A DNA stretch of 64,000 nucleotides from an uncultured candidate division Zixibacteria bacterium (lineage in GTDB: Bacteria; Zixibacteria; MSB-5A5; RBG-16-43-9): positions 320,001-384,000 of the forward strand of contig OY970208.1 of the NCBI GenBank assembly GCA_963713865.1, in the 5' to 3' direction. The first letter of the stretch is position 1, and each line of letters starts with the position of its first letter. The notes below the pieces were generated by a model. It searched no databases. It was not told where the DNA came from and saw nothing but the letters and a program-made list of their open reading frames with translations. Shown here piece after piece: positions 1,232-53,878 of this stretch. A program made the translations under genes and the position numbers.

Positions 1232-1869
1232 TGTCATTCTGACCCTGCCAAAGGCGGGGGAAGAATCTAATCTTTTTTAGTATCCAGATGCTTCGCTTCG
1301 CTCAGCATGACACCTCCCACCTTCGCTTGTCATTCTGAGCCCTACTGGCGAAGAATCTCTTCTTTTCTATTTGAGATTCTTCACTTCATTCAGAATAACA
1401 CCTCCCATCCCCTGTCATTCTGAGGGAGTTCCCTACAAGGGCGACCGAAGAATCTCAATAAATTCCTCATTTAAATCCTTCCATTCTGGATTAACTGATT
1501 CTATCAAGCTAATTTTCTTAATCCTCAACCATCCTTTAATCTGTTTCTCTCTGGTAATAGCACTTCTCACATCTTCTGTCATTTCATAATAGACTAATTT
1601 AGTGAGATTATATTTCTTGGTAAATCCCGCAATTAACTTATTCTTATGCTCATACATTCTGCGTTCTAAGTTATTAGTAACTCCTGTATATATAGTTCCT
1701 GAGTTATTAGTTAAGATATAAACATAATACTGTTTCATATTTTTTCAATGAAATTTTCAGATACTTCGCTTTGCTCAGTATGACACCTCCCACCTTCGCT
1801 TGTCATTCTGAGCCCTACTGGCGAAGAATCTCTTCTTTTTTATTATCAGATGCTTCGCTTAGCATGACA
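1232..1869. repeat. Cluster of TGTCATTCTGA...GAAGAATCT / AGAT..TTCG..TCAG.ATGACA REP-like inverted doublets around the GIY-YIG gene
   Basis: Forward units at about 1232, 1328, 1413, 1801 and reverse units at about 1286, 1374, 1759, 1848; near-identical 82-bp direct repeat at 1285-1366 and 1758-1839. Confidence 0.9.
1433..1738 (-). CDS. Small stand-alone GIY-YIG nuclease
   Basis: YYVYILTN..TIYTGVTNNLERRMYEHK...AITREKQIKGW...LIESVNPEWKDL. Confidence 0.9.
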   Translation of the reverse strand: MKQYYVYILTNNSGTIYTGVTNNLERRMYEHKNKLIAGFTKKYNLTKLVYYEMTEDVRSAITREKQIKGWLRIKKISLIESVNPEWKDLNEEFIEILRSPL

Positions 1870-1881
1870 ACACTCAATCAT

Positions 1882-3615
1882 TTAATCCTGAGCAAACAAC
1901 TTCTCATACGAGAACTCCTCCTTAAGAGGAGGCATCTCCTCTTTATCTAATACGAAATTACCCATAATAAGGTAGTCCATCCCGGAGCGCCTAAAGGAAA
2001 GATAAGCCTCTTCTGGAGTACAGACGATCGGCTCACCTCTTAAATTAAAAGAGGTATTCAAAAGGGCTGGATACCCGGTCAGGTTATAAAATTCTGCGAG
2101 CAGGTCATAAAAAAGCTGGTTCTCCTCTCTTTTCACGGTCTGTAATCTAGCTGAGCCGTCTACATGAGTTACTGCTGGAATCTCTTTACTCTTCACCTGA
2201 AAAGTCAGAAGCATAAAGGGGGAAGGTCTATCTATTTCAAAAAAATCCTTTGCTTTCTCCCAGATAATACTGGGCGCAAATGGCCTGAAACCTTCACGAT
2301 ATTTTACCTTTTGATTCACTCTATCCTTGTTCTCTGCCTTTCGAGGATCAGCTAAAATGCTCCGGTTACCTAAAGCTCTGGGACCAAATTCCATCCTGCC
2401 CTGAAACCAGCCCAGGATATTCTGTTCTGAAAGAAGTTTAGCAGCAAATTTAAGTAGTTCAGCCCGATTATATTCCTTATAAGTTATCCCCTCACAAATT
2501 AAAAAATCTTTTATCTGATCTTGTGAAAATCCCGGACCCAAATAGGCATCTTTCCATACAAAACCCCTCTGATTATTTAGAAGGGTGTAATAGATATAAG
2601 CTGCTACTCCCACTGCACCACCGGCATCGCTTGAACCAGGCTGAATAAAAAGCTCCTCCATAGGAGTCTCTTTTAAAATCCTTGAATTAGCCAAGCAGTT
2701 TAAGGCAACACCGCCGGCTAAGCATAAATTTTTCAAACCGGTTTCTTTATATAAATTGTTCGTCATCTTTAAAACAATCTCTTCAGTTACTTTCTGCAAA
2801 CTCGCAGCCATATCTTTATGCAGTTTTTTAATCTCAGTCTCAGGTTTTCTGGGAGCTGAACCGAAAAGTTTATCAAACCGGCCATTGGTCATCTTCAAAC
2901 CATAATCATAGGAGAAGTATCTCATATTCAGCTTGAAACTGCCATCTTCTTCTAAATCAACCAGCTCTTTCATTATAAGATCATAATGGACTGGCTCACC
3001 ATAGGGAGCCAATCCCATCACTTTATATTCTGCACTGTTCACCTTAAAACCTAAATAATAGGTGAAAGCACTGTATAAAAGCCCCAAGGAATGCGGGAAC
3101 CTCATCTCATATAAAAGCTCAATCTGATTATCTTTACCCATCCCGTATGCACCGGTCGACCACTCGCCCACTCCATCTATGGTAAGTATGCCTGCCTCTT
3201 TAAAGGGGGAGACCAAAAAACTTGACCCCGCATGGGAGAGGTGGTGCTCGATCATCAATACTTCTCCCTTATAATCAAGCTCCTTACGAATCAGAGATGG
3301 TATCCAGAGCTTTTCTTTCAGCCACATAGGAGTTGCCATCAAGAACGAGACAAAAGATTTTGGAAAGGTAGCTAAGTGCGAAAATAAAATCCTTTCGAAT
3401 TTGATAAAAGGTTTCTCATAGAAACCTATATAGTCAAGCTCCTTGGCAGATATATTTTCAGTGGAAAGGCAATAATTGATCGCTCGTAGAGGAAAGTTGG
3501 AATCGTGTTTAAGCCGGGAAAACCGTTCCTCCTGAGCTGCAGCTACTATCCTGCCATCTTTGAGCAAGGCAGCCGCTGAATCGTGATAAAAAGCTGAGAT
3601 ACCTAAGATATACAT
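1882..3615 (-). CDS. Carbamoyltransferase (NodU/CmcH family)
   Basis: ILGISAFYHDSAAAL, EHHLSHA, DGVGEW, GGVALNC, EFGPRALGNRSILADPR, LLNTSFN. Confidence 0.95.
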   Translation of the reverse strand: MYILGISAFYHDSAAALLKDGRIVAAAQEERFSRLKHDSNFPLRAINYCLSTENISAKELDYIGFYEKPFIKFERILFSHLATFPKSFVSFLMATPMWLKEKLWIPSLIRKELDYKGEVLMIEHHLSHAGSSFLVSPFKEAGILTIDGVGEWSTGAYGMGKDNQIELLYEMRFPHSLGLLYSAFTYYLGFKVNSAEYKVMGLAPYGEPVHYDLIMKELVDLEEDGSFKLNMRYFSYDYGLKMTNGRFDKLFGSAPRKPETEIKKLHKDMAASLQKVTEEIVLKMTNNLYKETGLKNLCLAGGVALNCLANSRILKETPMEELFIQPGSSDAGGAVGVAAYIYYTLLNNQRGFVWKDAYLGPGFSQDQIKDFLICEGITYKEYNRAELLKFAAKLLSEQNILGWFQGRMEFGPRALGNRSILADPRKAENKDRVNQKVKYREGFRPFAPSIIWEKAKDFFEIDRPSPFMLLTFQVKSKEIPAVTHVDGSARLQTVKREENQLFYDLLAEFYNLTGYPALLNTSFNLRGEPIVCTPEEAYLSFRRSGMDYLIMGNFVLDKEEMPPLKEEFSYEKLFAQD

Positions 3616-3858
3616 TTAAAACTGCCTGCGAGCGTTTTCCAAATTAATTTCTATCTTCTCTTTTTTTATCCAGAAAGATTTTTTCTTGTCTTTCCATTTC
3701 TTATTTAAAAGGTCTTTTCCTAAAAACCTGAGGAAGATGGAGAAAAGCCCGAGTATAACAAAATAAAAAAGTGTCAGGATGATTATAGACTGGACATAAG
3801 CTACTTTTTTGGAAAAAGCCTTAATCCCAGACCAGAGTTTATTCAGAAAACTTCTCAT
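3616..3858 (-). CDS. SxtJ-like small membrane protein
   Basis: One TM helix, ends in RQF, abuts the carbamoyltransferase. Confidence 0.7.
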   Translation of the reverse strand: MRSFLNKLWSGIKAFSKKVAYVQSIIILTLFYFVILGLFSIFLRFLGKDLLNKKWKDKKKSFWIKKEKIEINLENARRQF

Positions 3859-4058
3859 AAAATTACCTCAAAAGACAATATTAAAGCCAAAAGCATAATT
3901 GTCAAGACTTCCTTGAAATAAAAGGAAAACAGAAGATGGAAAATGAAAAATAAATAAGAATTTGGATTGTAAACTTTAGGTTTACCAAAAATTCTTTTGT
4001 CTTAATATGAATTAAAGTAAAGCTGAAGCTTTACCCTTCAGAGTGTAGTCTTTCACTT

Positions 4059-5540
4059 TTATTGAAATCTGGAAACTATGGTTTTATAAATCTCCTCTGC
4101 AATAATCCTGTGCCCTTCTTGGGTAGGGTGGCAGTGGTCGATAAACAGGGTTTCATTTCCTATTTTACTGAAAGCAGAGACTGCATCCACTAAGGGAACC
4201 TCATATTTTAAAGAAAGATTTTTGAGTTTTTCCCGATATGCATTTTTAATCCTCAAAGACTGGAAATCCAGCTCCTTCGCCCTTTCTAATTCCTTTTGTG
4301 CTTCTACTAATTCCCCTGCATTTTTCAGGGCAATACCTAAGTTGTAAGGCAAGAGCGCATAAGAAGAATCCTGGGCAATCGCCTTTCTGAAAAGATTTTC
4401 TGCCACTTTATAATTCCCTTCTCTCCAGTATAAAACACCCAGGTTATTCAGATACACAAAATTATCCGGCTGGAAAATTAAACCCTTTTCATAAAAAGCT
4501 TTGCTGGAATCTATGTTCCCCTGATCCTCATAGGCAGATTTAAAAACCGTGATCGAATACCAGTCGATCTTATCATAAATTTCAGCAAAATGAGCCCAGT
4601 CAATGCAGTAGGAGACCTTCCTTTTTAAAAGGGATTGGGTCTCATCTGCCATCACCAGCTCACCTTTTTCGTCTTTTAAGCTGGTGAAGACTTTAAACTG
4701 TAAACCAGAAGGCCACTCCAATGGAACCGGAACATTTATCAAAACTATTTTCATATTGTTGTCTTTTGCAAATTTTATCATCCCCTCGATATTCTGATAA
4801 TAATCTTCAGGTGAAACCCTGACCATCACCTCCTTTTTCTCTTTTTGTTTTCTCTCAAGAGAAGCTTTAATCGGAAGAATAAGCTCTTTTAGAAATCTAT
4901 AGGTGGCAAGATGGTTAAGAGTGCCCAGAAAACCAACTAATTGAGGATTTCTATTCATCAGCTCTTTATCAGAAATGTAGCCATTTTGAGAGGCATCATT
5001 ATTTCCGAAATAGACAATTATTAAATCAGGAGAGTATTTTAATCCATAATTCTTAAGATAGGTTAACCCCTGCAAGGAGGTATATCCAGAAACGGCTGCA
5101 TTTACCAGCTCAAATTTTTTATCCGGATGTTTTTGATTCAAGATTTTGACTAATTGCTCCCCAAAAGCATCTTCTCTTTTATGCAAACCCAATCCAACTG
5201 GAGCAGAATCGCCTAATAAGAGTATTCTATAAGTGTTAGCTGGCTTTGGAATTGAAATCTCCGGACCTAAAAGTCCATCTGAATTGGTCTGGAAGATGCC
5301 TTTGTGAACATTGGGTCTGAATTTCCAGAGAAGAAAAGGGTCTCTTTCCTGAACCCCTAAAAAGCGGGAGAAAAGCTCCTGCTGCCAGAGCTTATTCTCC
5401 TTGATTAATTTCTCCTGGTCTGTACCTTTAGCTATGAGATGAAACCCTGAGTCCAGAACCCTTAAGATTATCTCTATAAATAGAAAAAAAAGGATTACAA
5501 GGATTATCGAGAAGAAAAGATATTTTAGTAATTTTGACAT
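4059..5540 (-). CDS. SGNH/GDSL hydrolase with inserted TPR repeats
   Basis: LLGDSA, NAAVSGYTS, YFGNND, FIDHCHPT; TPR-like segments YLNNLGVLY and YNLGIAL. Confidence 0.85.
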   Translation of the reverse strand: MSKLLKYLFFSIILVILFFLFIEIILRVLDSGFHLIAKGTDQEKLIKENKLWQQELFSRFLGVQERDPFLLWKFRPNVHKGIFQTNSDGLLGPEISIPKPANTYRILLLGDSAPVGLGLHKREDAFGEQLVKILNQKHPDKKFELVNAAVSGYTSLQGLTYLKNYGLKYSPDLIIVYFGNNDASQNGYISDKELMNRNPQLVGFLGTLNHLATYRFLKELILPIKASLERKQKEKKEVMVRVSPEDYYQNIEGMIKFAKDNNMKIVLINVPVPLEWPSGLQFKVFTSLKDEKGELVMADETQSLLKRKVSYCIDWAHFAEIYDKIDWYSITVFKSAYEDQGNIDSSKAFYEKGLIFQPDNFVYLNNLGVLYWREGNYKVAENLFRKAIAQDSSYALLPYNLGIALKNAGELVEAQKELERAKELDFQSLRIKNAYREKLKNLSLKYEVPLVDAVSAFSKIGNETLFIDHCHPTQEGHRIIAEEIYKTIVSRFQ

Positions 5541-5735
5541 AGATTTTTATTTAATAATAAATTTATCCAGAAAACTAAAAATCATACGGAAAATAAGGGA
5601 TGGTTGACTAACTGTCAAGGATGGTTTAGATATCTTGCTCTTTTCTGGAAAGGATAAGAACGACCTCATCCTGACCCTCTTCTATAGGGAAAGGGTAAAA
5701 AATGACTCGGGGCTGTTCAAGAAATTTCAATTAGC

Positions 5736-6173: not shown

Positions 6174-6880
6174 TTAAATAAGTTCCCAAAGAAATAGAAA
6201 CTTGATAGATCCAGGTTACCCTCAACCCGGGATAGCCCTTAATAAAAGAAAATGGACAGAATCCACCTGAGGCGGATTCTGTACCTACACGAAAAATAAC
6301 AGGGGTCCCGCCAAAGGCGGGACGACCGGAGTTTATTCACCTTGGCGAAGGTCATGAACCCTTTAAGATTGAATCCTTAAGTCTTTTAAAAATTAGCTAT
6401 TACAAAGCCACGCAAAAACTTACTAATTCTTGGACTATCCATAATAACCCACACAAAACCCATAATAACCTAATCCAAATTGAAACAGGCAGTGGCTGGT
6501 ATTTTTCATGACCCTAGTACTAAAACTATGAGAGCACCTCATAGGTAATTTTTTCTTTATTGGTGTCTGTACACCAGACGCAGTGGATTTGATATCCGAG
6601 TTGGTATCTTTAGCTAACTTGTTGTTATTCAATATAATCTTTCTACTGAATAAGCTTACAGGATAATTTAATTTGTATCAATTTGTATCATTTGGGACGG
6701 TTTATGGACACTATTTGGACACCAGGATTGATAAATGGACAGATCGTGGGAGTCATAAATAGGTTTAACCGAAATGAATTTACCTTGACTTTTCCAATTC
6801 ATGAGTTATCATTTTACTAAAGTAGCGGATACTAATCATATCGAATTTTGTGAACCAGTGACCTCGAAAACAAGTCAAAG

Positions 6881-9163
6881 ATGCCTACTAAGATGTCTTT
6901 AGGGACTAAAATCTCTACACTCTGTTTCATGTTCTTACTTATTCTCTATCCAGGGCAGTCTCTTGTGTCATTTATTGATGTGAGTCCGAATCCTAATTTC
7001 AGAAATTTATATACCTCAGTTTTCTGTGCGGATTTTGACGGGGATGGGCGTTTGGATTTAGCGGTGGCAAATAGCGGAAGTAATACGGTCTCCATATTAA
7101 AGAACAAGGGGGATGGGACATTTCAGACTGCGGTTAACTATGGTGTAGGAAATTCTCCTGTGTCCATTTTTTCTGCTGATTTAGACGGGGATGGGCGTTT
7201 GGATTTAGCGGTAGCAAACAGCGGAAGTAATACGGTCTCCATATTAAAGAACAAGGGGGACGGGACATTTCAGACTGCGGTTAACTATGGTGTAGGAAAT
7301 TCTCCTGTGTCCATTTTTTCTGCTGATTTAGACGGGGATGGGTATTTGGATTTAGCGGTGGCAAATAGCAGAAGTAATACGGTCTCCATATTAAAGAATA
7401 AGGGTAATGGAACATTTCAGACTGCGGTCAACTATGCAGCAGGGGACGTTCCTGCTTCTATTTTTTGTGCGGACTTAACCGGGGAGGGTGATATAGACTT
7501 AGCTGTAGCAAATAGTGAAAGTAACACTGTCTCTTTATTTAAGAACAACGGTAATGGAACTTTTCAGGCTAAAGTTGATACTGGTACGGGAAAGAGTCCT
7601 TATTCTATTTTCTGTGCGGATTTAGACGGGGATGGCCATTTAGATTTAGCAGTGGCAAACAGTGGAAGTAACACTATCTCCATATTCAAGAATAAGGGGA
7701 ACGGAATTTTTCAAGGTTCAGTGAACTACACTGTTGGTGAACGTCCGCATTCTATTTTCTGTGCGGATTTAGACGGGGATGGGCATTTGGATTTAACTGT
7801 GACAAATAATTATAGCAATGATGTTTCTATTCTCAAGAACAAGGGTGATGGAACATTTCAGTCGGCAGTGAACTATGCAGGAGGGGACGGTCCTGCTTCT
7901 ATTTTTTGTGCAGATTTAAATGGTAATGGATATAAAGACTTGGTCGTGACAAATGATGGAAGTGAACAGGATATTTTTGTAAGCAGTAGTATTTCAATTT
8001 TAGAAAACCAAGGGGATGGCACATTTCCGAGACCGCTTAACTATAGAGTAGGAAGCGAGCCTATTTCAGTCTTTTGTGCGGATTTAAATGGGGATGGAGC
8101 TGAAGACTTAGCTGTGGCAAATAATAATAGTAACGATATTTCCATTCTCAACAACAATGGTGATGGGACATTTCAGAGCGCGATCAACTATCCAGCAGGA
8201 AACCGCCCTGCTTCTGTTTTTTGTGCAGATTTAGACGGGGATAGGCATTTAGACTTAGCGGTGGCAAATAGCAGGAGCAACACCATTTCCGTATTAATCA
8301 ACAATGGTGATGGAACTTTTCAGAACGCGGTCAGCTATGTTGTGGGAAATTCTCCTCTGTCTATTTTTTGTGCAGATTTAGATAGGAACGGACGTTTTGA
8401 CTTAGCTGTGGCAAACAGCGGAAGTAACACTGTCTCCATACTGAAGAACAATGGTGATGGAACTTTTGCGACCGCGGTTAACTACAGCGTAGACAGTGCA
8501 GGGGCAGTTCCTACTTGTGTCTTTTGTGCGGATTTAGACGGAGATGGGGATTTAGATTTGGCGGTCGCGAATAATGCTGGCTATATCACCATATTGAAGA
8601 ATAACAGCGATGGAACTTTTCAATCCAAAGTTGACGGCACCATAGGAATCTATATTCCAGAAGTGGAGTACCCTGTAGGAATTTTTCCTCATTCTATTTT
8701 TTGTGCGGACTTTGACGGGGATAAGGATTTAGACTTGGCTGTTGCAAATAGTGGAAGTAATACTATCTCCATATTAAGGAACAAAGGTGGTGGGACTTTT
8801 GAGGCAGCTGTCAACTACAGCGTGGGGGACGTTCCTAGTTCTATTTTCTGTGCGGACTTAAACGGGGATGGGCATTTAGATTTAGCTGTGGCCAATAGCG
8901 GAAGTAATACTATCTCCATATTCAAGAATAAGGGGAATGGAATTTTTCAAACTCCAGTTAATTATACTGTTGGTGAACGTCCGCATTCTATTTTCTGTGC
9001 GGATTTAGACCGGGATGGGAATTTAGACTTGGCTGTGGTAAACACTTATAGCAACGATGTTTCCATTCTCAAGAACAATGGTAATGGGACATTTCAGAGC
9101 GCTGTAAGCTATGCGGCAGGGGATGTTTCTAATTTTATTTATTGTGTACATTCATATAGATAG
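6881..9163 (+). CDS. Secreted FG-GAP/VCBS repeat protein (about 14 repeats of ~49 aa); last repeat degenerate
   Basis: Repeats of FCADLDGDGxLDLAVANSGSNTVSILKNxGDGTF; hydrophobic N-terminus; promoter-like TTGACT at about 6785. Confidence 0.9.
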   Translation: MPTKMSLGTKISTLCFMFLLILYPGQSLVSFIDVSPNPNFRNLYTSVFCADFDGDGRLDLAVANSGSNTVSILKNKGDGTFQTAVNYGVGNSPVSIFSADLDGDGRLDLAVANSGSNTVSILKNKGDGTFQTAVNYGVGNSPVSIFSADLDGDGYLDLAVANSRSNTVSILKNKGNGTFQTAVNYAAGDVPASIFCADLTGEGDIDLAVANSESNTVSLFKNNGNGTFQAKVDTGTGKSPYSIFCADLDGDGHLDLAVANSGSNTISIFKNKGNGIFQGSVNYTVGERPHSIFCADLDGDGHLDLTVTNNYSNDVSILKNKGDGTFQSAVNYAGGDGPASIFCADLNGNGYKDLVVTNDGSEQDIFVSSSISILENQGDGTFPRPLNYRVGSEPISVFCADLNGDGAEDLAVANNNSNDISILNNNGDGTFQSAINYPAGNRPASVFCADLDGDRHLDLAVANSRSNTISVLINNGDGTFQNAVSYVVGNSPLSIFCADLDRNGRFDLAVANSGSNTVSILKNNGDGTFATAVNYSVDSAGAVPTCVFCADLDGDGDLDLAVANNAGYITILKNNSDGTFQSKVDGTIGIYIPEVEYPVGIFPHSIFCADFDGDKDLDLAVANSGSNTISILRNKGGGTFEAAVNYSVGDVPSSIFCADLNGDGHLDLAVANSGSNTISIFKNKGNGIFQTPVNYTVGERPHSIFCADLDRDGNLDLAVVNTYSNDVSILKNNGNGTFQSAVSYAAGDVSNFIYCVHSYR

Positions 9164-9415
9164 ATATTCAGACTTGATCAGTCAAATACTTTTGGCGATA
9201 GTGTATTTGTACTTTTTTGTTCTGTCAGGAGCTACTCCTGACAGAAGTGTCAGGTCTGAGGACCTGATACAACATAGAATTAAAAATTGCGGGGGTCCCG
9301 CCAAAGGTGGGGGATGGACAACCAGCCTGCAAAAATATACGTTAATCAATAAATCCGAGTTATCCTCAAAAAAATGGACAGAACGATGTTCTGTCCCTAC
9401 GCAATAAATAAAAAA

Positions 9416-10133: not shown

Positions 10134-10531
10134 TCTGTGACCAGTTAGTAATTAGGTAAAGAAGCTGGGGGTCCCCAAAATGGACGAGTTTATAACTTTT
10201 TTGATATCAGAGAATTTTGATATACATGCCAAATTAGTTGAGTTCTGTCATTGGGTGCCTTATGGGACGATGTTAGAACCTGTTTCATGGTCTCAAGTTA
10301 AGTTTACCCCGACCATGTTTACACTATTTCTTCTCTGACTACCCAAAGGGCGTCAGAATATTCTCAGGTTAGCTACGGGGGCTTATTTTTTGTAATTAAT
10401 TAAACCAAAGAAACACAGACAGGGGTAGGTTCAGATATATTCCGGAGCTGTGGAAGTGTTAAACTTTGAGGCAGAAACGAGGCAAAAAGAGCCGAATTAA
10501 TTTTTGGCTCTTGTAAGTCCTTGTATTTCAA

Positions 10532-10595
10532 TAGCGGAGGGTGGATTTGAAGGGCGACCTTCCCCCGCCTTTGGCGGGAGACGGACTACCAGCCT
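10532..10595 (-). pseudogene. Degenerate tRNA-Met remnant with the anticodon arm replaced by CCCGCCAAAGGCGGG
   Basis: Minus strand AGGCTGGTAGTCCGT-CTCCCGCCAAAGGCGGGGG-AAGGTCGCCCTTCAAATCCACCCTCCGCTA aligns to the native tRNA on both sides of the hairpin. Confidence 0.7.
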
Positions 10596-10682
10596 AAAAA
10601 AATATCCGTTAATCAATAAATCCGAGTTAACCTCAAAAAAATGGACAGAACGATGTTCTGTCCCTACACGACAAATAAAAAA

Positions 10683-10769
10683 TAGCGGGGGTTGGATTTG
10701 AACCAATTCGCCTTGGCGAAGGTTATGAGCCCGACGAGCTACTCCGCCGCAGGCGGACTCCACCCTGCG
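10683..10769 (-). ncRNA. tRNA-fMet-like copy 3 (87 nt, two hairpin substitutions)
   Basis: CGCAGGGTGGAG[TCCGCCTGCGGCGGA]GTAGCTCGTCGGGCTCATAACC[TTCGCCAAGGCGAA]TTGGTTCAAATCCAACCCCCGCTA. Confidence 0.8.
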
Positions 10770-10998
10770 ACATTTCGTCTATAAATTCCCTACCTTTTCC
10801 AGTTTTCAACCACCTCTCCCTTTTAACAGCTTCTCCTCTGCTGTCGAACTCCTCTGAGTAAATCACCCGCCAGTTACTATCTACCTTTGTAGTTTTACAT
10901 AATCCAAAATTATGCTCCGATAACCTGCGTCCTAAATCGGAAGTATACCCAGTATATTGTTTTCCTTTAGCAGATTGAAGCACATATACTGTAAACAT
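10723..10998 (-). CDS. GIY-YIG nuclease, copy 3
   Basis: VYVLQS...YTGYTSDLGRRLSEHN...EAVKRERWLKTGKGR. Confidence 0.9.
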   Translation of the reverse strand: MFTVYVLQSAKGKQYTGYTSDLGRRLSEHNFGLCKTTKVDSNWRVIYSEEFDSRGEAVKRERWLKTGKGREFIDEMSQGGVRLRRSSSSGS

Positions 10999-11026
10999 AA
11001 GAGGAAATCAGAGGGATAATAAAAAA

Positions 11027-11113
11027 TAGCGGGGGTTGGATTTGAACCAATTCGCCTTGGCGAAGGTTATGAGCCCGACGAGCTACTCCGCCGCAGGCGG
11101 ACTCCACCCTGCG
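11027..11113 (-). ncRNA. tRNA-fMet-like copy 2
   Basis: Identical to 10683-10769. Confidence 0.8.
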
Positions 11114-11342
11114 ACATTTCGTCTATAAATTCCCTACCTTTTCCAGTTTTCAACCACCTCTCCCTTTTAACAGCTTCTCCTCTGCTGTCGAACTCCTCTG
11201 AGTAAATCACCCGCCAGTTACTATCTACCTTTGTAGTTTTACATAATCCAAAATTATGCTCCGATAACCTGCGTCCTAAATCGGAAGTATACCCAGTATA
11301 TTGTTTTCCTTTAGCAGATTGAAGCACATATACTGTAAACAT
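11067..11342 (-). CDS. GIY-YIG nuclease, copy 2
   Basis: Identical to the other copies. Confidence 0.9.
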   Translation of the reverse strand: MFTVYVLQSAKGKQYTGYTSDLGRRLSEHNFGLCKTTKVDSNWRVIYSEEFDSRGEAVKRERWLKTGKGREFIDEMSQGGVRLRRSSSSGS

Positions 11343-11370
11343 AAGAGGAAATCAGAGGGATAATAAAAAA

Positions 11371-11457
11371 TAGCGGGGGTTGGATTTGAACCAATTCGCC
11401 TTGGCGAAGGTTATGAGCCCGACGAGCTACTCCGCCGCAGGCGGACTCCACCCTGCG
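11371..11457 (-). ncRNA. tRNA-fMet-like copy 1
   Basis: Identical to 10683-10769. Confidence 0.8.
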
Positions 11458-11686
11458 ACATTTCGTCTATAAATTCCCTACCTTTTCCAGTTTTCAACCA
11501 CCTCTCCCTTTTAACAGCTTCTCCTCTGCTGTCGAACTCCTCTGAGTAAATCACCCGCCAGTTACTATCTACCTTTGTAGTTTTACATAATCCAAAATTA
11601 TGCTCCGATAACCTGCGTCCTAAATCGGAAGTATACCCAGTATATTGTTTTCCTTTAGCAGATTGAAGCACATATACTGTAAACAT
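11411..11686 (-). CDS. GIY-YIG nuclease, copy 1
   Basis: Identical to the other copies; starts 28 nt after the tRNA 3' end. Confidence 0.9.
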   Translation of the reverse strand: MFTVYVLQSAKGKQYTGYTSDLGRRLSEHNFGLCKTTKVDSNWRVIYSEEFDSRGEAVKRERWLKTGKGREFIDEMSQGGVRLRRSSSSGS

Positions 11687-11714
11687 AAGAGGAAATCAGA
11701 GGGATAATAAAAAA

Positions 11715-11788
<74 letters not shown>

Positions 11789-11817
11789 ATCATAGTCTAA
11801 TTAAATAGACGGGTAGT

Positions 11818-17869: not shown

Positions 17870-18943
17870 TTATCGGGTACAATTGCACCTTATCTTCCTA
17901 TAATCCATATCCGGGGATTCGAACCCGGATTTCAATTTTTCCCACATTTGCACGGTTTCCTTACAAAGAGAGACATCGGTATAATTGTATTTTTCTTTAA
18001 GGTGATTAATCAAGTGCAGGTACATAGTATACCTATTGGAGAATTCTATCTTTTTGCCCCAGTTTGACTTCTCTTCCAAGTAAATTTTCCAGGATTTATC
18101 TTTAGTTCCATTAATGGTGCTTTGCAAACCCCTTAAAGAGCCTAAAGTTATACGCTCAGGTTTGAATTCTGTAAAGATCTGGTCAATCAACTCAATATAA
18201 CTCTCTTGCCATCCAGAAATTGGCACCATCGGGTCTATTCTGACCCTTATCTCATAACCAGCTTTAGCTAACTTGCCTGCCGCTTCTATTCGTTTTGAAA
18301 CCGGAGGCGCTTTTTTCTCCCATTTTTTTGCAACCTTATCTGCATTCAGACTGAAGCTGATGATTGCTTGTTTATGTGATTCTATTTCAAGTAAATTTTT
18401 AATTTTAGTTGATTTGGTCAAAAATAAAACTTTATGTTTATTTTGAGACTCAAACAGCGGAATGATGAATTTAGAGAAAGGGTTGTGTCCGTTTTCGCAC
18501 ATTAGGGAATCAGCAATTTCTCCAGTATTCAGGATTTCAGGTGGTAGAGACGTCTCGCCAGAGGCGGACGTCTCTACATCAAAAAATTCTCTGACGTGCT
18601 GTTCAATTTTAGCATAATCTTTAATAACCGGTTTTATCCCTTCTGGTCGAAACCTGAAAGTCCCCTTTAAATAACACCAACTGCAATCAAACGGACACCC
18701 ATAAGCCCATTTAAGCTCTAAAAAATGCGGACAGACCACATCAGTGGATTCAACAGGTAAAGGTGTTTTTTCAAATCTCGTGATAATCGAACCATCACCA
18801 ATACGTTGAACAAGTCGTTTCTCGGAAGCATCAATCAATTTATATGGTCTAATAACAACTCTCAATGAAGCTTTTTCTTTCTTAGATAGTAAGCTTCTTT
18901 CTTTGACTATACTTGAGATATTAGAGAAAGGTAATTCTGTCAT
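17870..18943 (-). CDS. Spore photoproduct lyase-like radical SAM protein
   Basis: GCPFDCSWCYL, NTGEIADSL, LFLTKS, RVRIDPMVP. Confidence 0.8.
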   Translation of the reverse strand: MTELPFSNISSIVKERSLLSKKEKASLRVVIRPYKLIDASEKRLVQRIGDGSIITRFEKTPLPVESTDVVCPHFLELKWAYGCPFDCSWCYLKGTFRFRPEGIKPVIKDYAKIEQHVREFFDVETSASGETSLPPEILNTGEIADSLMCENGHNPFSKFIIPLFESQNKHKVLFLTKSTKIKNLLEIESHKQAIISFSLNADKVAKKWEKKAPPVSKRIEAAGKLAKAGYEIRVRIDPMVPISGWQESYIELIDQIFTEFKPERITLGSLRGLQSTINGTKDKSWKIYLEEKSNWGKKIEFSNRYTMYLHLINHLKEKYNYTDVSLCKETVQMWEKLKSGFESPDMDYRKIRCNCTR

Positions 18944-21419: not shown

Positions 21420-23586
21420 TTATCCGATATCCGCCAGCTTGAATTTATCTTTATATCTTTTAATAAATTTACTCCTCAAACATAGATTATCCTTTGAGCT
21501 TAAGTTTGGATCCTCCTGCACTATCCTGAAAGCCCAATCCCGAGCCTTGTATAGCAGCCCTAAATCCTCAGTTAAATCTGCAATTTTCAGATCTGGCAAT
21601 CCGTGCTGTCTGGTCCCGAAGAACTCCCCTGGACCTCTCAATTTTAAGATCCGCTTCTGAGATTCTAAATCCATCTGTAGTTGAGGATAAAATCTGTAGT
21701 CTTTTTTTCGCCTCCCCGGAAATCAATTGGAGAGAAATTTCAAGATACAATAGGATTGCTCCTCTCCCCTGCCGATTCTCCCTCTGAGCTGATGAAGCTG
21801 GGAAAGCCCAAACCTCTCCGCATGCTCAATTAACATCAGCGTAGAATTAGGCACATCCAAACCCACCTCGATCACGGTAGTGCAAACTAAAATATCAAAT
21901 TTCTTTAAGCGAAAATCTTTCATTATCTTTTCGCGCTCTTCTCTTTTTATCCTGCCGTGAAGCAAAGCTATTTGTCTGTGAGAAAAAACTTTCTCTTTAA
22001 GAAATTGATACCCCTCAGTTGCCGCTTTTAAATCAGCTTTTTCTGATTCCTCTATCAAAGGGTAAACGATATAAGCCTGTCTTCCTTTTTTAAGCTCCTC
22101 CTCTAAAAAAAGATAACCCTTTTCCGAGGAATGCTCCTCTAAAAGTCTGGTCTCAATCTTTTTCCTTCCTGGAGGCATCTGGTCAATTACCGAAACATCC
22201 AGATCACCATATACTGTCAGGGCTAAGGTTCGAGGAATAGGGGTGGCAGTCATAACCAAGAGGTGTGGTGATTTACCTTTAAGCTTTAAACTTAACCTCT
22301 GCAAAACTCCAAAACGATGCTGCTCATCTATAACCGCCAGACCTAACTTATTGAAATTTACCTCTTTTTGAATAAGGGAATGGGTACCTATTATGATCTT
22401 TGCTTCACCGGAAGAGATTTTCTCTAAGATTTTTTTCCTTTCTCCGGTTTTTACCGAACTGGTTAAAAGGAGTGGTTTTATCTTTAAAGGTTCTAAAAAG
22501 AAACTCAGGCTCAGATAATGCTGTTCAGCTAAAACCTCAGTTGGTGCCATTATTGCTGTTTGATAACCATTTTCCACTGCCATCAACATAGATAAGAAGT
22601 GCTACGACGGTCTTTCCTGAGCCAACATCCCCCTGCAAAAGCCGGTGCATGGCTTTTCCTGAGGAAACATCCTGATAAACCTCATTTAAAACCTTTCTCT
22701 GGGCAGGAGTCAACTCAAAGGGCAAACTTTGCATGAAAGTTTTGACTAATTCTCCGGGTCTGTGAAATATTATCCCCTCTTCTTTTATTTCCGATCTTTT
22801 TTTCCTCAGAGCTAAAAGAAGCTCCAAATAGAAAAGTTCTTCAAAAGCTAACCTTTTCCTTGCACTTTGGGCATTTTCTAAAGAAGCTGGAAAATGGATA
22901 TTTTTCAAGGACCAGTCTAAAGAGGGAAGCTCAAGCTCTTCTCTCACCTCAGCTGGAAGTGACTCTGGAACCTGGGTCTGAAGATTTTCCAGAATAAAGC
23001 TTATGGTTCGGCGGAAGCCTCGACTATCCAGATAGAGATGTTTTAACTCTGAAGTCGAAGGATATAAAGGGATAATTCCTCCGGTATGGATCAGCTTCTC
23101 CCCTTTTTCCGAATTTGGATCCACAGGACCGGAGATTATCTCAAATTCCGGATGGGGCATCTGCAGTCCGTAGAAATCTCGTATTTCCCCTGAGGCAATA
23201 ACTGTATCACCCTCCTTGAACCTGTTCTGGACATACCTGATTCCGGAAAACCAGACTAATTTTAAAAAATTTTTATGTTCTCTTATGATCAGCCAGTATT
23301 GGGGTTTTCTCCATCTTTTTATACCATAGGACTCAACTGTTCCCATAACTGTCGCCTTAGAGTTGACCTGAAGCTGACTTATGGGGGTGAAGGTGCTCCG
23401 GTCCAGGTATCTGCGCGGGATATGATAAAGAAGGTCTTCCACTGTTTTTATGCCCATGGAGTCTAACGCTTTCGCTTTAGTCGGACCTATCCCTTTTAGA
23501 TACTGTATCGGGCTTTGAAGGTCGATCCGCTTAAGTCCACCCGGGGCAGATTTAGAATTAACTGACAAGGCAGTAGTCAAAGCCAA
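21420..23586 (-). pseudogene. recG: ATP-dependent DNA helicase RecG split by three frameshifts (about 22595, 21735, 21642); possibly sequencing errors
   Basis: LLQGDVGSGKT, APTEVLAEQH, VIDEQHRFG, MTATPIPRT, QLHQLRGRIGRG, TTDGF, RGPGEFFGTRQHG spread over four ORF pieces. Confidence 0.92.
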
Positions 23587-25434: not shown

Positions 25435-25506
25435 ATACAGTGGTCAGTGTTCAGTCCGCTTGAGGTGGAGTGGCGAGTTTTACTGACCACTAATTAAGGA
25501 GGGGTT

Positions 25507-30685: not shown

Positions 30686-31412
30686 TTAGAATCTCTCTCC
30701 CTCTGGGGTAGCCGCAGACTTTATATCTGCGTAACTCCGCAACCTAAAGGTTGCAGCTACCTTGTGATTTTCATTTATCCCTCCCTTCCAGGGAGGGACA
30801 AAGGGAGGGTGATTGATTTTCATAACACATCCCTCTCTCTCCGCCTCTGGCGGGATTTTCAACCTAACCCTCTCCCACAAGGGAAGAGGAAACTATGTAC
30901 CGAAGGGCTTGATAAATCAAGCCCCTACAATTCTTCTTGTCATTCTGAGGAAGCGTAAGCGACCGAAGAATCTAAAGATTCTTCGTCCGCCTTTGGCGGA
31001 CTCAGAATGACATAAATAACTATATAAGACTTCTTGAACAACCAACTACTATAGACTATTCTTTTATCTCTCTTCTAAAGTTTAACATCATAATTATAAA
31101 AAATAAAAAGTGTTTCTCCAAGAAAATAAAACGTCCGGGATAAACCCGGACGCTACGAACTGCCCTCATGTTTTTTTGTAGGGACAGAACATAGTTCTGT
31201 CCTCAAATACAAGGGGCGGGTTTCAAACCCGCCCCTGCCTAAGCGACCAAAGGGAGTGTTGAAAAACTAGAACCGAGAGAGTGTCATTCTGACCCCGCCA
31301 ATGGCGGGGGAAGAATCTATGCGTGAATCAAGGAGATTCTTCGGTCACTGCGCTCCCTCAGAATGACAGGGTTGGCTTATTCAACAGTTCCTGAAAAGTC
31401 GCACTACGAAAC
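30686..31412. repeat. Dense patch of several palindromic REP-like families
   Basis: GTAG-type hairpins (30708-30760, 31178-31202), TGTCATTCTGA doublets (30938-31012, 31282-31368), CCCTCTCCC..GGGAAGAGG, CCGCC-N3-GGCGG. Confidence 0.85.
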
Positions 31413-47260: not shown

Positions 47261-47314
47261 CACCAGTTCAAAGGTTCAAAAGTTAAATAGTTCAAAGATA
47301 AAAACTAAAAAAGT

Positions 47315-48549: not shown

Positions 48550-48565
48550 AAAGGAGGTGAAATAA

Positions 48566-50278: not shown

Positions 50279-50293
50279 TGAAAGGAGCTTGTT

Positions 50294-51469
50294 TTGAAAA
50301 ATAAAAAGAGTTTGGCCACTCTGGCTGTAGACTTGGGGGAGGAGAGGTTTTCCTTAGGGGCTTTAGCTGAGCCGATATTCCAGAGTTCCACCTTCGCTTT
50401 CAAGAACTCGGCCGAGTTAAAAAGATATCTTAAGGGTGAAAAAGGGCTATATTTCTATACCCGCTATGCTAATCCCACCATCGAGTTTGCAGAGAAGAAG
50501 ATGGCGGTCCTGGAAGGCGGCCAGTCAGCTTTAGCCACCTCCTCCGGTATGTCCGCAATCACTACTGCCCTTTTAACCTTAGTCTCTTCAGGACAGGAGA
50601 TCATCAGCACTTCTCCGCTTTATGGTGGAACTTATCATCTTTTCCAGGACCTTTTCCCCAGACTGGGAATAAAAGTCCATTTCGTGGATGCAGAGTCTAT
50701 AGAAAAGGCTGAAGATTATGTTAATTACAAAACTAAGGTACTTTTCATAGAGACTCCAACTAATCCTAATTTGAAAATAGTGAACATCAAAGAAGGAGTA
50801 AAGATCGCAAAGAAGTTCGGGTTGACCTTCGTGGCGGATAACACCTTTGCTACTCCTTTAAACCAAAAACCCTTGGAAATGGGGGTGGATGTGGTGGTTC
50901 ACAGCGCAACAAAATATCTGGCCGGCCACAGTGACCTTATCGCTGGAGTGATCATCGGAAAGAAAGATTTTATCACCAGGACAATTACAGTGATGAAGCT
51001 TTTGGGCGGATGTTTAGACCCTTTGGGAGCATTTTTATTCTTAAGGGGATTGAAGACTTTATCGGTAAGAGTTGAAAAACAAAATCAGAATGCTTTAAAG
51101 ATCGCTCAGTATTTCTCAAAACATCCCCGGGTCAGAAAAGTCTATTATCCGGGCTTAAAAAATCATAGCCAGTATAATTTAGCCAAATCCCAGATGAAAG
51201 GGTTTGGAGGAATGGTTACCTTTGAACTTAAGGATTTGAATTCAGCCATAAAGCTTCTGGATAATCTAAAGGTGTTCAAAAATGCAGTCAGCCTGGGCGG
51301 GGTGGAGTCCTTAGCCTCTATACCGGTTTTGTCTTCCCATTACGGGCTGGACGAAACAATGCTTAAAAAATCCGGGGTAACTAAAGGGATGCTGCGTTTA
51401 TCCTGCGGAATCGAGGATACAGAAGATCTTATATATGACCTGGACCAAGCCCTTAAAAAAGTAAGATGA
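50294..51469 (+). CDS. Trans-sulfuration PLP enzyme (methionine/cystathionine gamma-lyase family)
   Basis: YTRYANPT, ETPTNP, HSATKYLAGHSD. Confidence 0.9.
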   Translation: MKNKKSLATLAVDLGEERFSLGALAEPIFQSSTFAFKNSAELKRYLKGEKGLYFYTRYANPTIEFAEKKMAVLEGGQSALATSSGMSAITTALLTLVSSGQEIISTSPLYGGTYHLFQDLFPRLGIKVHFVDAESIEKAEDYVNYKTKVLFIETPTNPNLKIVNIKEGVKIAKKFGLTFVADNTFATPLNQKPLEMGVDVVVHSATKYLAGHSDLIAGVIIGKKDFITRTITVMKLLGGCLDPLGAFLFLRGLKTLSVRVEKQNQNALKIAQYFSKHPRVRKVYYPGLKNHSQYNLAKSQMKGFGGMVTFELKDLNSAIKLLDNLKVFKNAVSLGGVESLASIPVLSSHYGLDETMLKKSGVTKGMLRLSCGIEDTEDLIYDLDQALKKVR

Positions 51470-51622
51470 AAGTCATAGGGGCAATTTCCAGATGGATCCA
51501 TACTGGACATAAATTGCCCCTACCACTAAATATAGAGGAGGTCATTAGATCTCCCTTATCTTAATATTATGGAAGGCTAAAATCTTTAGGTTAAAAGCTA
51601 ATAGCTATTTTCAGGAGATTTT

Positions 51623-52747
51623 ATGGCAAAGAAAATATATTTCATCGATTCCCGGGTGGAAAAATTCGATTACAAATATAGCCTCCAGGGAAGGCTGGAA
51701 AAAGCTTTAGAAAGGATTGACCTTACAAAATATTTCTTCAGGGATGAACTGGTTCCCCTCAAAATGCATTTAGGAAATAGGGGAGGACACAATACCATCC
51801 GGCCTAATTTTGTCAGACTGGTAGCAGAGCAGATGAAGAAAGCCGGAGCCAAGCCTTTTGTTACTGATTCCTCCAGGGTGAAACCCTACGAATATTTGGA
51901 AGTGGCAAATGAAATGGGGTATAACCCGCTTTCCCTTGGATGCCCGGTTATAATTGCAGATGGAATATTCGGTTTCGATTCGGTTATGGTTAAAGCTGGA
52001 AAGATTTTGAAAGAGCTAACCATTCCCTCGGCTATCTATGATGCAAAATCTATGATGGTCTTATCCCATATCAAAGGACACATAGATTCCTCCTTAGCTG
52101 GAGCCATAAAAAATTTAGCCATGGGATGCGTTTCCCCTCAGCCTCGTAAGTGTACCTGGAAAGAGGGAGGTAGAGGAAAGATGCATTTTCAAATGACCGA
52201 GATAATGAGTTGGAATGAGAAGCTCTGTACCTATTGTTACATCTGCGCAAACAACTGCCCGGTAGGAGCGATTACAGTTAGAAAGGATTTTTTTGAAGTG
52301 GATAAGGAAAAGTGCTGGAGATGTGGAAGATGTGTCAAGGTCTGCCCGGAAAAAGCCTTATCTGTGCCTTCTTCGCATGAAAATTTCTCAGCCGCCTTAG
52401 CTGAGTCTGCTAAGGCAGTATTAGATACTTTTGAACCAGGCAAAGTTTTATATATCAACTTTATTTTAGATGTTCAGCCAGAATGCGATTGTATGGCAAT
52501 CTCAGATAACCCCTTGATTCAGGACCAGGGGATTTTGCTTGGAGATGATATCGTAGCCATTGAGACTGCGACTATGGATATAATTGAAAATGCCATCCCC
52601 TTACCCCAATCCAAAGCTGAAGGGATAGAATTGAAAAAAGGGGAAGATATCTTTAGCGCCCTGCACAAGAAAGATGCCCGGACACAGATAAAGGAAGCAA
52701 AGAATTTGGGATTAGGGGAAAGCGAGTATTATTTAGAAAAAATATAA
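51623..52747 (+). CDS. DUF362 Fe-S protein with 2x[4Fe-4S] ferredoxin domain
   Basis: KMHLG, SHIKGH, KNLAMGC, CTYCYICANNCP, CWRCGRCVKVCP. Confidence 0.9.
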   Translation: MAKKIYFIDSRVEKFDYKYSLQGRLEKALERIDLTKYFFRDELVPLKMHLGNRGGHNTIRPNFVRLVAEQMKKAGAKPFVTDSSRVKPYEYLEVANEMGYNPLSLGCPVIIADGIFGFDSVMVKAGKILKELTIPSAIYDAKSMMVLSHIKGHIDSSLAGAIKNLAMGCVSPQPRKCTWKEGGRGKMHFQMTEIMSWNEKLCTYCYICANNCPVGAITVRKDFFEVDKEKCWRCGRCVKVCPEKALSVPSSHENFSAALAESAKAVLDTFEPGKVLYINFILDVQPECDCMAISDNPLIQDQGILLGDDIVAIETATMDIIENAIPLPQSKAEGIELKKGEDIFSALHKKDARTQIKEAKNLGLGESEYYLEKI

Positions 52748-52840
52748 AAAAAGCTGGTAGCAGGTAGCTCGTAGCCTGTAGCCAGTGGCAAAAAACAGAA
52801 GCCCTACCTTGCCCTCAAGGTGGGGTAATTTAGTGAAAAA

Positions 52841-53776
52841 TTGCCAAAACAATATAAAAACTATCTGATCTTACTCCTGGCAGTTACCTCCGTTTCCTGG
52901 GCCTCTATTTTCATCAAGCTCTCAGATGCACCATCCTTGATAATTGCCTTTTACCGGATGGGCTTGGCTTCCTTATTCCTTCTCCCTTTTTTCATCAAAA
53001 AAGGATTGACAGATTATAAGGTTTTAACCGGAAAGGAGATTCTACTCTGTTTTCTTTCCGGTATTTTCCTGGGATTCCATTTTGTAACCTGGATCTCTTC
53101 TTTGGCTTACACCTCAGTCTCTAGTTCAGTGGTAATTGTAGCTACTCAGCCGATATTTGTGGCTTTACTCACCCCTTTGATCCTAAAGGAGAAAATCGAT
53201 CTGTGGGTATTTATAGCAATTTTAATTGCCCTGACCGGGATTTTCATCATTGCAGGTGGAGATGTAAAAATCGTAGGGGAAAACCTTAAAGGTGATATTC
53301 TATCTTTGATCGGTGCAATTATGGCTGCATTATATCTGACTTTGGGAAGAAGTATCCGGAAAAAATTGAACCTTCTTCCATATATTTTTCTGGTCTATTC
53401 TATCTCTACTGTGGTAATATTCATTTTCTGCTTATTTTCTGGAGTTAATTTCTCTCCAGTTACCTGGAAGAACCTTATCCTTTTTATCCTTTTGGCTCTG
53501 ATACCCACCCTTATCGGTCATACCCTCTATAATTACATCCTGAAATATGTCAAAGCCCATCTAGTAGGGATGACTATTTTGGGTGAGCCTTTAGGGGCAA
53601 CCCTCCTGGCTTTTCTGATCCTCAAAGAGATACCCGCCATCACTGTTTATCTTGGCGGGATTTTAATCTTCATCGGCATCTGGATAGCCGTTCTGGAGGG
53701 AAAGAGCTTTAGGTTAGCTGCAGCGTCCGGGTTTATCCTTGACGTTTTTTGTCTTATCGTAGTGCGACCCTTTTAG
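52841..53776 (+). CDS. EamA/DMT transporter; C-terminus runs into REP sequence
   Basis: 10 TM helices in two EamA repeats. Confidence 0.9.
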   Translation: MPKQYKNYLILLLAVTSVSWASIFIKLSDAPSLIIAFYRMGLASLFLLPFFIKKGLTDYKVLTGKEILLCFLSGIFLGFHFVTWISSLAYTSVSSSVVIVATQPIFVALLTPLILKEKIDLWVFIAILIALTGIFIIAGGDVKIVGENLKGDILSLIGAIMAALYLTLGRSIRKKLNLLPYIFLVYSISTVVIFIFCLFSGVNFSPVTWKNLILFILLALIPTLIGHTLYNYILKYVKAHLVGMTILGEPLGATLLAFLILKEIPAITVYLGGILIFIGIWIAVLEGKSFRLAAASGFILDVFCLIVVRPF

Positions 53777-53878
53777 GGTCGCCAAGAATCGTAGGGGCAC
53801 GTTGTCCTGCCATCGGCGGGATGCCCCTACTTTTTTCACACCAAATAGTCTATTAAATCCTCACGTATTATAATTAAA

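Follow-up and report, generated by a model that had tools for sequence, protein, structure and literature searches.

A 15-bp palindrome at the tips of several hairpin repeat classes and in the tRNA stubs of GIY-YIG cassettes of a Zixibacteria genome

Hairpin repeats fill many bacterial genomes, and their origin and diversification are largely unknown. The locus under study raises the question of how one short palindrome of 15 bp, YCYGCC-N3-GGCGGR, came to stand in the loops of many different hairpins. It is a stretch of 64,000 nucleotides (hereafter the window) from an uncultured candidate division Zixibacteria bacterium, corresponding to positions 320001-384000 of the single 2.72-Mb contig (OY970208.1, 40.4% GC) of assembly GCA_963713865.1, here designated G000. 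We find that the palindrome lives in disabled tRNA copies beside tiny GIY-YIG genes and at the tips of intergenic hairpin repeats. The observations at hand concern its abundance, polarity, nesting, empty and filled states, its linkage to GIY-YIG genes and the absence of linkage to the RAYT transposase genes of REPs (repetitive extragenic palindromes), and the reading that we favour, with a probability of about 45%, is that the palindrome may be a mini-hairpin module of fixed polarity, which would serve as a handle for Ssn-like GIY-YIG nucleases and be copied by cutting and repair.

Abundance, polarity and placement of the palindrome

Three forms of the motif were used, namely YCYGCC-N3-GGCGGR, taken from an earlier sequence-only reading of the window, the stricter YCCGCC-N3-GGCGGR, and the core CCGCC-N3-GGCGG. 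Within the window the first form yields 18 strand matches against 0.01 in shuffled sequence, corresponding to 10 distinct sites (1244, 6307, 10564, 10743, 11087, 11431, 30840, 30986, 31294 and 53806), and four degenerate copies accompany them, at 6262 (TCCACC..GGCGGA), 9297 (..GGTGGG) and 18554 (CTCGCC..) with one mismatch each and at 25455 with two. Genome-wide, the stricter form is found at 115 exact sites, or at 252 when up to one mismatch is allowed, and the core, with 116 copies, is the most frequent of all 5-N3-5 palindromes in G000. The observation made in the sequence-only reading is thus borne out, the palindrome being over-abundant at the level of both the window and the genome. The sites and the features around them are the following, the strand being given where one was assigned (ORF, open reading frame; NTS and SRM, hairpin repeats linked to Ssn nucleases).

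1233..1267, plus strand: NTS/SRM-like unit GTCATTCTGA-(C CCTGCCAAAGGCGGG G)-GAAGAATC, with the palindrome at 1244-1258
1433..1738, minus strand: gene for a 101-residue single-domain GIY-YIG protein (Ssn-like), with GTCATTCTGA..GAAGAATC arrays on both sides and its last codons inside one unit
6254..6288: filled GTAG-type REP GGACAGAA-TCCACCTGAGGCGGA-TTCTGTACCTAC, with the palindrome at 6262-6276 (one mismatch)
6290..6350, minus strand: tRNA-Met 3' stub, T arm replaced by CCCGCCAAAGGCGGG (6307-6321), from comparison with the intact tRNA at 11714-11789
9282..9330, minus strand: tRNA-Met-like stub, T arm replaced by CCCGCCAAAGGTGGG (9297-9311, one mismatch)
9376..9400: empty REP GGACAGAA-CGATG-TTCTGTCCCTAC, with a second copy at 10643-10667
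10530..10600, minus strand: tRNA-like stub, anticodon arm replaced by CCCGCCTTTGGCGGG (10564-10578)
10674..11769, minus strand: 3.2 tandem copies of a 344-bp unit (GIY-YIG ORF plus disabled tRNA-Met copy), 99% match
10743, 11087 and 11431: disabled tRNA-Met of the 344-bp unit, D loop replaced by TCCGCCGCAGGCGGA and variable region by TTCGCCTTGGCGAA
10723..10998, minus strand: 91-residue GIY-YIG ORF (PF01541, E 5.7e-13), with identical copies at 11067-11342 and 11411-11686
11714..11789, minus strand: intact tRNA-Met(CAT), immediately 5' of the first GIY-YIG ORF
18544..18577: GTAG-type REP GTAGAGACGT-CTCGCCAGAGGCGGA-CGTCTCTAC, with the palindrome at 18554-18568 (one mismatch)
25455..25469: decayed copy TCCGCTTGAGGTGGA (two mismatches) within the hairpin GTGGTCAGT...ACTGACCAC
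30840..30854: palindrome in a loop of a BoxC-like repeat (neighbourhood CCCTCTCCC-ACAA-GGGAAGAGG)
30939..31011: inverted doublet of SRM-like units with a four-way junction fold, second tip TCCGCCTTTGGCGGA (30986-31000)
31283..31317, plus strand: SRM-like unit with tip CCCGCCAATGGCGGG (31294-31308), within a 148-149-bp doublet
53791..53830: GTAG-type REP GTAGGGGCACGTTG-(T CCTGCCATCGGCGGG A)-TGCCCCTAC, with the palindrome at 53806-53820

The loop length is sharply set at 3 nt, with 4, 116, 13 and 2 copies having loops of N2, N3, N4 and N5 in G000, and the opposite polarity, GGCGG-N3-CCGCC, which is equally stable, has 0 copies versus 116. Such a polarity combined with a fixed loop does not fit the notion of any stable GC hairpin; together with the conserved stems and the recurrent adjacency to GIY-YIG genes described below, it points to sequence-specific recognition or copying. 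A second mini-hairpin with a marked polarity is present in the genome, CCCGC-N5-GCGGG, with 84 copies versus 6 reversed. The palindrome is mostly intergenic, as 18 of the 115 sites fall inside ORFs of at least 150 codons, though such ORFs make up 84% of the genome. Its own flanks are not conserved and it has no GTAG-type head of its own, the GTAG belonging to the host REP, and the orientation of its loop does not differ clearly between the replichores of G000.

These properties bear on the possibility that the palindrome is a structural element arising repeatedly by selection, be it a site bound by protein, a hairpin that stabilises RNA or terminates transcription, or a signal for the processing of tRNA-GIY-YIG transcripts. 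The base pairing would agree with it, since the closing pairs co-vary (C-G at 54, T-A at 50 and mixed at 11 of the 115 sites) and a seventh pair is complementary at 75 of the 115; also, stems are kept and loops vary in orthologous cassettes, and similar tips are found in rRNA and RNase P RNA. The T-run that characterises intrinsic terminators (at least four T within 10 nt, both strands considered) follows 15 of the 115 copies, but is lacking in the other 100. Moreover, the 137 one-mismatch copies, in which the differences are mostly C>T or G>A, look like decay, the sites differ between sister genomes, and convergent selection leaves one exact core with a fixed polarity unexplained. We thus regard an origin by selection as quite unlikely.

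As to the stable RNAs, the same or a near-identical hairpin is found at the tips of variable helices at G000 C1 1310415 (16S), 1314342 (23S), 1316405 (just after 5S) and 1670179, the last in RNase P RNA and in a helix that we take to be P3 from its sequence features. A recent insertion into the 16S rRNA was considered and rejected, as the tip of helix 17 is common to relatives of the family, with drift, which indicates vertical inheritance within 16S. A cyanobacterial origin of the DNA and identity of the palindrome with the HIP1/SDR repeats were likewise rejected, the 16S of this genome bearing what we take to be a non-cyanobacterial signature.

Hosts of the palindrome and their empty and filled states

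The nesting of the palindrome within other hairpins, its empty and filled states and its replacement of loops without target duplication, all put forward in the sequence-only reading, are confirmed, the first two on a genome-wide scale. Of the exact sites, 31% are enclosed, at a distance of 0-4 nt, by a perfect inverted repeat of 5 bp or more, versus 2.9% of random positions, and DNA folding yields hairpin-in-hairpin structures at palindrome sites; the doublet at 30936-31014 forms a four-way junction with -24.9 kcal/mol (z -8.0). Upon clustering of the flanks, the core is found in at least 10 unrelated host families. By type, the hosts are NTS/SRM-like units placed around an Ssn-like GIY-YIG gene, GTAG-type REPs that lie near RAYT genes, BoxC-like repeats and the dead tRNA copies or stubs of tRNA-linked GIY-YIG cassettes. 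Every host family is also present without the palindrome, having short loops or other tips instead. The GTAG-type REP GGACAGAA..TTCTGTCC, seen in the window as empty (9376, 10643) and filled (6254), has 62 members in the genome with an empty 5-nt CANTG loop and 21 with the palindrome, and in the REP family of 53791..53830 the palindrome-free members carry GCAAC or TNAAAC. The GTCATTCTGA..GAAGAATC units (family A) hold the palindrome in 29 of 117 copies, the remaining ones carrying other perfect mini-hairpins of 7-28 nt (GCGAAGC, GCCCGTAGGGC, GTCCCCGTAGGGGAC, GTCCCGC-N5-GCGGGAC), and the GTCATTGCGA..GAAGCAATC units (family B, the GCGA variant) hold it in 20 of 71. The palindrome is therefore one among several GC-rich tip modules. 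GCGAAGC, CCCC-GTA-GGGG and similar tips are reminiscent of the DNA mini-hairpins with GNA loops, which are very stable.

At filled sites the palindrome takes the place of 5-13 nt and no target duplication is present; the target-site duplication and terminal inverted repeats that define miniature inverted-repeat transposable elements were not found at these sites. In three REP families with a defined head (G000 C1 2527095-2527868; copies for example at 438579 and 1401483), the palindrome stands in place of the loop and of the inner portion of one arm and leaves the opposite arm unpaired, which is an asymmetric replacement. The SRM-like units also occur as inverted doublets (window 30936-31014 and 1229-1870) with four-way-junction folds and two independent tips.

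Empty alleles were also expected in relatives, and they are indeed present. Across 121 genomes of the phylum the palindrome count varies from 0 to 458 in a patchy manner; the 21 genomes of the order have 29-458 copies each, and 0-2 of the pattern read backwards. The same-genus genome G001 is about 87-91% identical to G000 in syntenic DNA. At the site orthologous to 1244, G000 has CCTGCCAAAGGCGGG and G001 has TCCCCGCAGGGGA, with conserved flanks; at 6262 the palindrome of G000 corresponds to CAATG in G001 (GGACAGAA-CAATG-TTCTGTCCCTAC); and at 30986, TCCGCCTTTGGCGGA corresponds to the 6-nt CTATCG between near-identical flanks. At these three sites the tip alone differs, between conserved flanks, and no target duplication is seen; they were checked by hand along with an ambiguous fourth (6307). 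Long high-scoring segment pairs (HSPs) between the two genomes break at repeat clusters, two motif sites lying inside HSPs of at least 400 nt, and the orthologous comparison thus rests on the hand-checked sites. At window position 23536, an orthologous motif-like hairpin differs between G000 and G001 at 5 of 15 positions, its flanks being ~9% diverged.

Contigs of metagenome runs were compared as well. The 148-149-bp doublet holding 31294 is missing from contigs of X1 and of X3 and is unaligned in G001, which indicates that whole units are also gained and lost, and at the 30840 locus a contig of run X1 has 221 bases replaced by 56 others. In these runs, which cover small shares of the window, whole-unit presence or absence was seen and no tip-only polymorphism.

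Such results are what would be expected if the palindrome were a passive passenger, that is, a tip variant of a few successful REP/SRM subfamilies that spread with its host repeat. It would then have entered each family once or a few times via short-tract gene conversion or template switching, in the course of ordinary replication and repair (e.g. hairpin cleavage followed by ectopic repair), and its placement in GIY-YIG cassettes would only reflect that dead tRNA copies are neutral, hairpin-rich DNA. Besides the gain and loss of whole units and the breaks of HSPs at repeat clusters, this explanation finds agreement in the many other tip modules of the same hosts (GCGAAGC, CCCC-GTA-GGGG and CCCGC-N5-GCGGG) and in the decay of one-mismatch copies mainly by transitions, as in neutral DNA. 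However, the polarity and fixed loop are hard to account for without sequence-specific recognition or copying, and host arms of 8-10 nt offer little homology for conversion, the unique tRNA arms offering none.

GIY-YIG cassettes and their linkage to the palindrome

G000 has eight small GIY-YIG hits at six loci. At four of these loci the gene comes immediately 3' of an intact tRNA (Met, Gly-TCC, Ala-TGC in the rRNA spacer, and Ser-GCT) and ahead of a second, disabled version of that tRNA, thus forming cassettes (331414-331789, 2133382-2133728, 1312542-1312833 and 2706377-2706756; loci L068-L100 in relatives) in which the anticodon arm of the disabled copy is either deleted or exchanged for a short perfect hairpin. 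With relatives included, the tRNA partners are Met, Gly, Ala, Ser, Thr, Asn and tmRNA. In the Met and Ser(GCT) cassettes the disabled copy has the palindrome at the end of the GIY-YIG ORF: in the Ser copy TCCCGCCGCTGGCGGGAT has taken the place of the 5' half of the anticodon arm, and in the Met copy the palindrome stands in place of the D loop and TTCGCCAAGGCGAA in place of the variable region. The sequence-only reading had described the palindrome as nested in the D, anticodon and T arms of tRNAs, and while the arms were rightly named, all of them belong to dead tRNA-Met copies, the gene at 11714-11789 being the only intact one. It had also assigned hairpins to the 3' end of the GIY-YIG gene itself; the final 11 codons of the 91-residue ORF do read through the disabled tRNA-Met copy including the palindrome, but this is part of a displaced tRNA copy into which the ORF runs.

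PF01541 is the only domain of the 91-residue protein, and the 101-residue ORF at 1433..1738 was found as a weak hit of it (E 6.3e-5). When compared with the PDB by phmmer, both proteins matched only UPF0213 GIY-YIG proteins, weakly in the case of the 101-residue one, and the NCBIfam search returned no family above its cut-off for the GIY-YIG proteins. The GIY-YIG proteins cluster by tRNA partner, and the 101-residue protein forms a clade apart from the tRNA-linked ones. The analogy with SLX1-type enzymes, which cut branched DNA, had been proposed but is not the closest one, the closest characterised enzymes being specific for single-stranded DNA (ssDNA).

In G001 there is one equivalent disabled tRNA-Met copy, with no GIY-YIG ORF there; the array of 3.2 x 344 bp in the window (10674-11769) may be a real amplification or an assembly effect. 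Between 6250 and 11800 the window holds at least seven tRNA-Met-derived fragments in 5.5 kb, which bracket a gene for an FG-GAP-repeat protein (6881-9163) and small ORFs, and the inserts at the same stubs in G001 differ, so that the region looks like one of repeated insertion at tRNA-Met. Elsewhere, at G000 C1 2062330-2062537, both the D loop and the anticodon loop of a tRNA-Ser(GGA) 5' stub hold hairpins; 6 nt separate this stub from the intact tRNA-Ser(GGA) that comes after it, and the GIY-YIG ORF that four relatives have there is absent.

The palindrome is linked to these genes well beyond the background. In G000 three of the six GIY-YIG loci have a motif within 300 nt, the distances being 17, 60 and 291 nt, and the probability that a random position is within 200 nt of a motif is 0.034. 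In relatives of the same order, a motif lies within 200 nt at 11 of 31 GIY-YIG hits (19.9 kb scanned, some neighbours sharing a motif), and in other families of the class within ~250 nt at 7 of 22 (9 motifs in 16 kb), including cassettes of tRNA-Met, tRNA-Ser and tmRNA. This corresponds to a ~tenfold enrichment beside small GIY-YIG genes, alike in the order and in the other families. A motif is found beside 4 of 4 Ser-GGA cassettes and beside Ser-GCT cassettes in 5 of 6 genomes. In these five orthologous Ser(GCT) cassettes the 6-bp stems are perfect and the loops differ (GCT, GCT, AAA, TTT, GTT), the identity of the GIY-YIG proteins being 66-90%. Both the recurrence of the enrichment in distant families and the perfect stems at such protein identities are difficult to reconcile with a passive passenger. 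Across the 121 genomes, motif counts and GIY-YIG hits co-occur with a Spearman coefficient of 0.41 (0.33 outside the order). Taken together, these results make Ssn-like GIY-YIG nucleases the best candidate partner of the hairpin.

The Y1 transposases of the genome provide a useful comparison. Indeed, an alternative is that IS200/IS605-type Y1 transposases (RAYT) of the GTAG-type REPs move or maintain the palindrome by inserting it into single-stranded loops, which would account for the lack of target duplication, as Y1 transposases act on ssDNA hairpins without duplication (PMC11893778; this is also well established). Each of the eight Y1_Tnp hits in G000 has REP hairpins of its own at its flanks, and Y1 hits are present in every one of the 21 genomes of the order; several hosts of the palindrome are GTAG-type REPs, and such REPs are served by the RAYT genes of the genome. 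However, none of the hairpins flanking the eight Y1 genes is the palindrome, the distances from these genes to the nearest motif are 1.5-42 kb, and the palindrome lacks a GTAG-type head. The motif count hardly follows the number of Y1 hits (Spearman 0.16, 0.05 outside the order; 121 genomes, relatedness uncorrected). The involvement of RAYT is not supported, and we consider it very improbable.

A number of observations weigh against our favoured reading. Among same-order hits, the linked ones come from tRNA-Ser cassettes or from tandem partners of these, with two exceptions that have no detected tRNA nearby, one of them clustering with the Ser(CGA) cassette, and no motif is found at the 15 same-order loci linked to Ala, Gly, Thr, Met (G003), Asn or tmRNA. 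As proteins cluster by tRNA partner, this confinement implies few independent events, and the link to GIY-YIG genes rests on few old cassette lineages. The correlation across genomes is uncorrected for relatedness, and the partnership proposed in the sequence-only reading is only partly supported. At the family level a GIY-YIG hit is neither necessary nor sufficient for many motifs: no hit is found in 5 of the 37 genomes with at least 30 motifs, and hits are present in 18 of the 28 with at most 3. Close orthologues (at least 66% identity) of the Ser(GCT) protein occur only in the order of the window, which leaves a clade-level test across genomes powerless outside it. Furthermore, each host family has its own variant of the palindrome, which indicates that most copies result from the multiplication of host and tip together; among singleton contexts, 11 of 63 have a flanking stem of at least 6 of 8, ~4 being expected; and the differences between G000 and G001 at orthologous sites could reflect replacement of whole units instead of a tip swap. 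The published SRM pattern HGTCWYN(0-2)YYVSBRHN(0-5)WNVSBRGN(0-2)RNCYNB has 4 hits in the genome versus ~2.7 expected from a Markov-1 simulation, the 15-bp palindrome is symmetric and lacks the oriented flank that NTS needs (PMC11893778), and similar hairpins form the tips of helix 17 in 16S rRNA, of a helix in 23S rRNA and of P3 in RNase P RNA. The lack of an oriented flank, the travel with hosts, the few cassette lineages and the tips in rRNA and RNase P RNA leave the passive passenger as a strong rival, possible in our view though doubtful.

A possible route of spread and its relation to known systems

Despite these points, we favour the reading of the palindrome as a handle for Ssn-like nucleases. 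In this scheme, the hairpin folded in ssDNA would be recognised by Ssn-like GIY-YIG nucleases, which would cut in or beside another folded hairpin; repair could then copy an existing palindrome, replacing a few bases of the tip and leaving no target duplication. Once acquired in this rare way, the tip would multiply with its host as one repeat by REP or SRM amplification, and the copies would then decay by C>T and G>A changes. A bolder version takes the 15-mer itself as the unit of mobility, a bare hairpin homing, by cutting and repair, into the ssDNA tips of REPs, SRM-like units and the arms of spare tRNA copies by means of tRNA-linked, Ssn-like mini GIY-YIG nucleases that would recognise it as ssDNA, each GIY-YIG lineage keeping its own mini-hairpin. 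We find this version unlikely; if true, it would be the smallest mobile DNA described.

The nearest known system is that of the SsnA-type single-domain GIY-YIG enzymes. Hairpin repeats lying on either side of the gene of such an enzyme, and filling the genome, are the sites at which it binds and cuts ssDNA, as in the NTS-ssnA-NTS layout of Neisseria meningitidis, where cutting of NTS by SsnA requires a conserved oriented flank (PMC11893778). The Zixibacteria genes share with it a single GIY-YIG domain of about 90-100 residues, a gene flanked by hairpins with a GC core and about a hundred or more intergenic copies of these, the same hairpin polarity, in which the C-rich arm comes first (NTS core CCCGCG..GCGGG), and, in the GTCATTCTGA..GAAGAATC units, GTCAT as the head and GAATC as the tail, as in the Neisseria NTS (CGTCATTCCCGCGMAVGCGGGAATCYRG) (PMC11893778). 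Indeed, the gene at 1433-1738 lies between arrays of units that are abundant in the genome (117 copies plus 71 of the GCGA variant), and the proteins are single-domain GIY-YIG proteins of about 94 residues (91 residues, or 101 by a weak match). However, the local units are longer than SRMs and have an internal loop, the palindrome is an inner tip within larger hairpins and tRNA stubs, and most linked genes here are tRNA-linked cassettes, of which the available account of Ssn makes no mention (PMC11893778).

Other repeats compare in part. In the REP/BIME and REPIN-RAYT systems, Y1 transposase genes are flanked by their own REPs (PMC3116915), and GTAG heads, intergenic hairpins in tens to hundreds of copies and the gain or loss of whole units are shared with them; unlike a REP, the palindrome is a nested tip common to several REP families. 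The GC clusters of yeast mitochondria are short GC-rich palindromes in AT-rich DNA that spread and undergo 'merger and shuffling' into composites and rapid diversification, but they are organellar, have 30-40 nt or more and a putative target-site duplication, and no nuclease partner is named in their description (PMC4478555). SDR4-6 of Nostoc are modules of 21-27 nt said to insert precisely, e.g. SDR5 into HIP1, and are similarly very small repeats placed within other sequences (as cited in PMC4390886, PMC5861425). They are, however, cyanobacterial and of a different sequence. To our knowledge, no nuclease is linked to them. The host of 30840 and about 9 further genome copies resemble the consensus of the BoxC/TM_ECO intrastrand triplex repeats, CCCTCNCCC-N3-6-GGGNGAGGG-N3-GGGNGAGGG (PMC4666352), a likeness of sequence, and differ in that one loop of the host repeat holds the palindrome. 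Finally, SegB is a free-standing GIY-YIG homing endonuclease that sits in the tRNA cluster of phage T4 and gains preferential inheritance by cutting DNA that lacks it; it is likewise a GIY-YIG gene among tRNA genes, but a larger phage enzyme that cuts double-stranded DNA, in contrast with the ~90-residue chromosomal genes found here, paired with a disabled copy of the neighbouring tRNA (PMC2330249).

Thus, hairpin repeats linked to Ssn/SRM nucleases, REP-RAYT systems and merging GC clusters of yeast mitochondria (PMC4478555) are already known, and what is new is the 15-bp module as a tip common to several repeat classes and to the tRNA stubs of GIY-YIG cassettes. Our literature search returned no report combining Zixibacteria with repetitive extragenic palindromes, nor one that describes nested hairpin tips in its title or at the start of its abstract, which is not proof of absence. 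Here, an exact hairpin of 15 bp serves as an interchangeable tip in several repeat classes and in spare tRNA copies, and is in physical linkage with nuclease genes of the smallest type known. Should the nuclease recognise the hairpin, the two would form a testable nuclease-hairpin pair outside Neisseria and reveal a possible route to composite 'hairpin-in-hairpin' repeats, as well as new ssDNA-specific pairs of enzyme and site of the kind sought as tools (PMC11893778). Should it not, the palindrome would still be a clean case of modular evolution among REP-type repeats.

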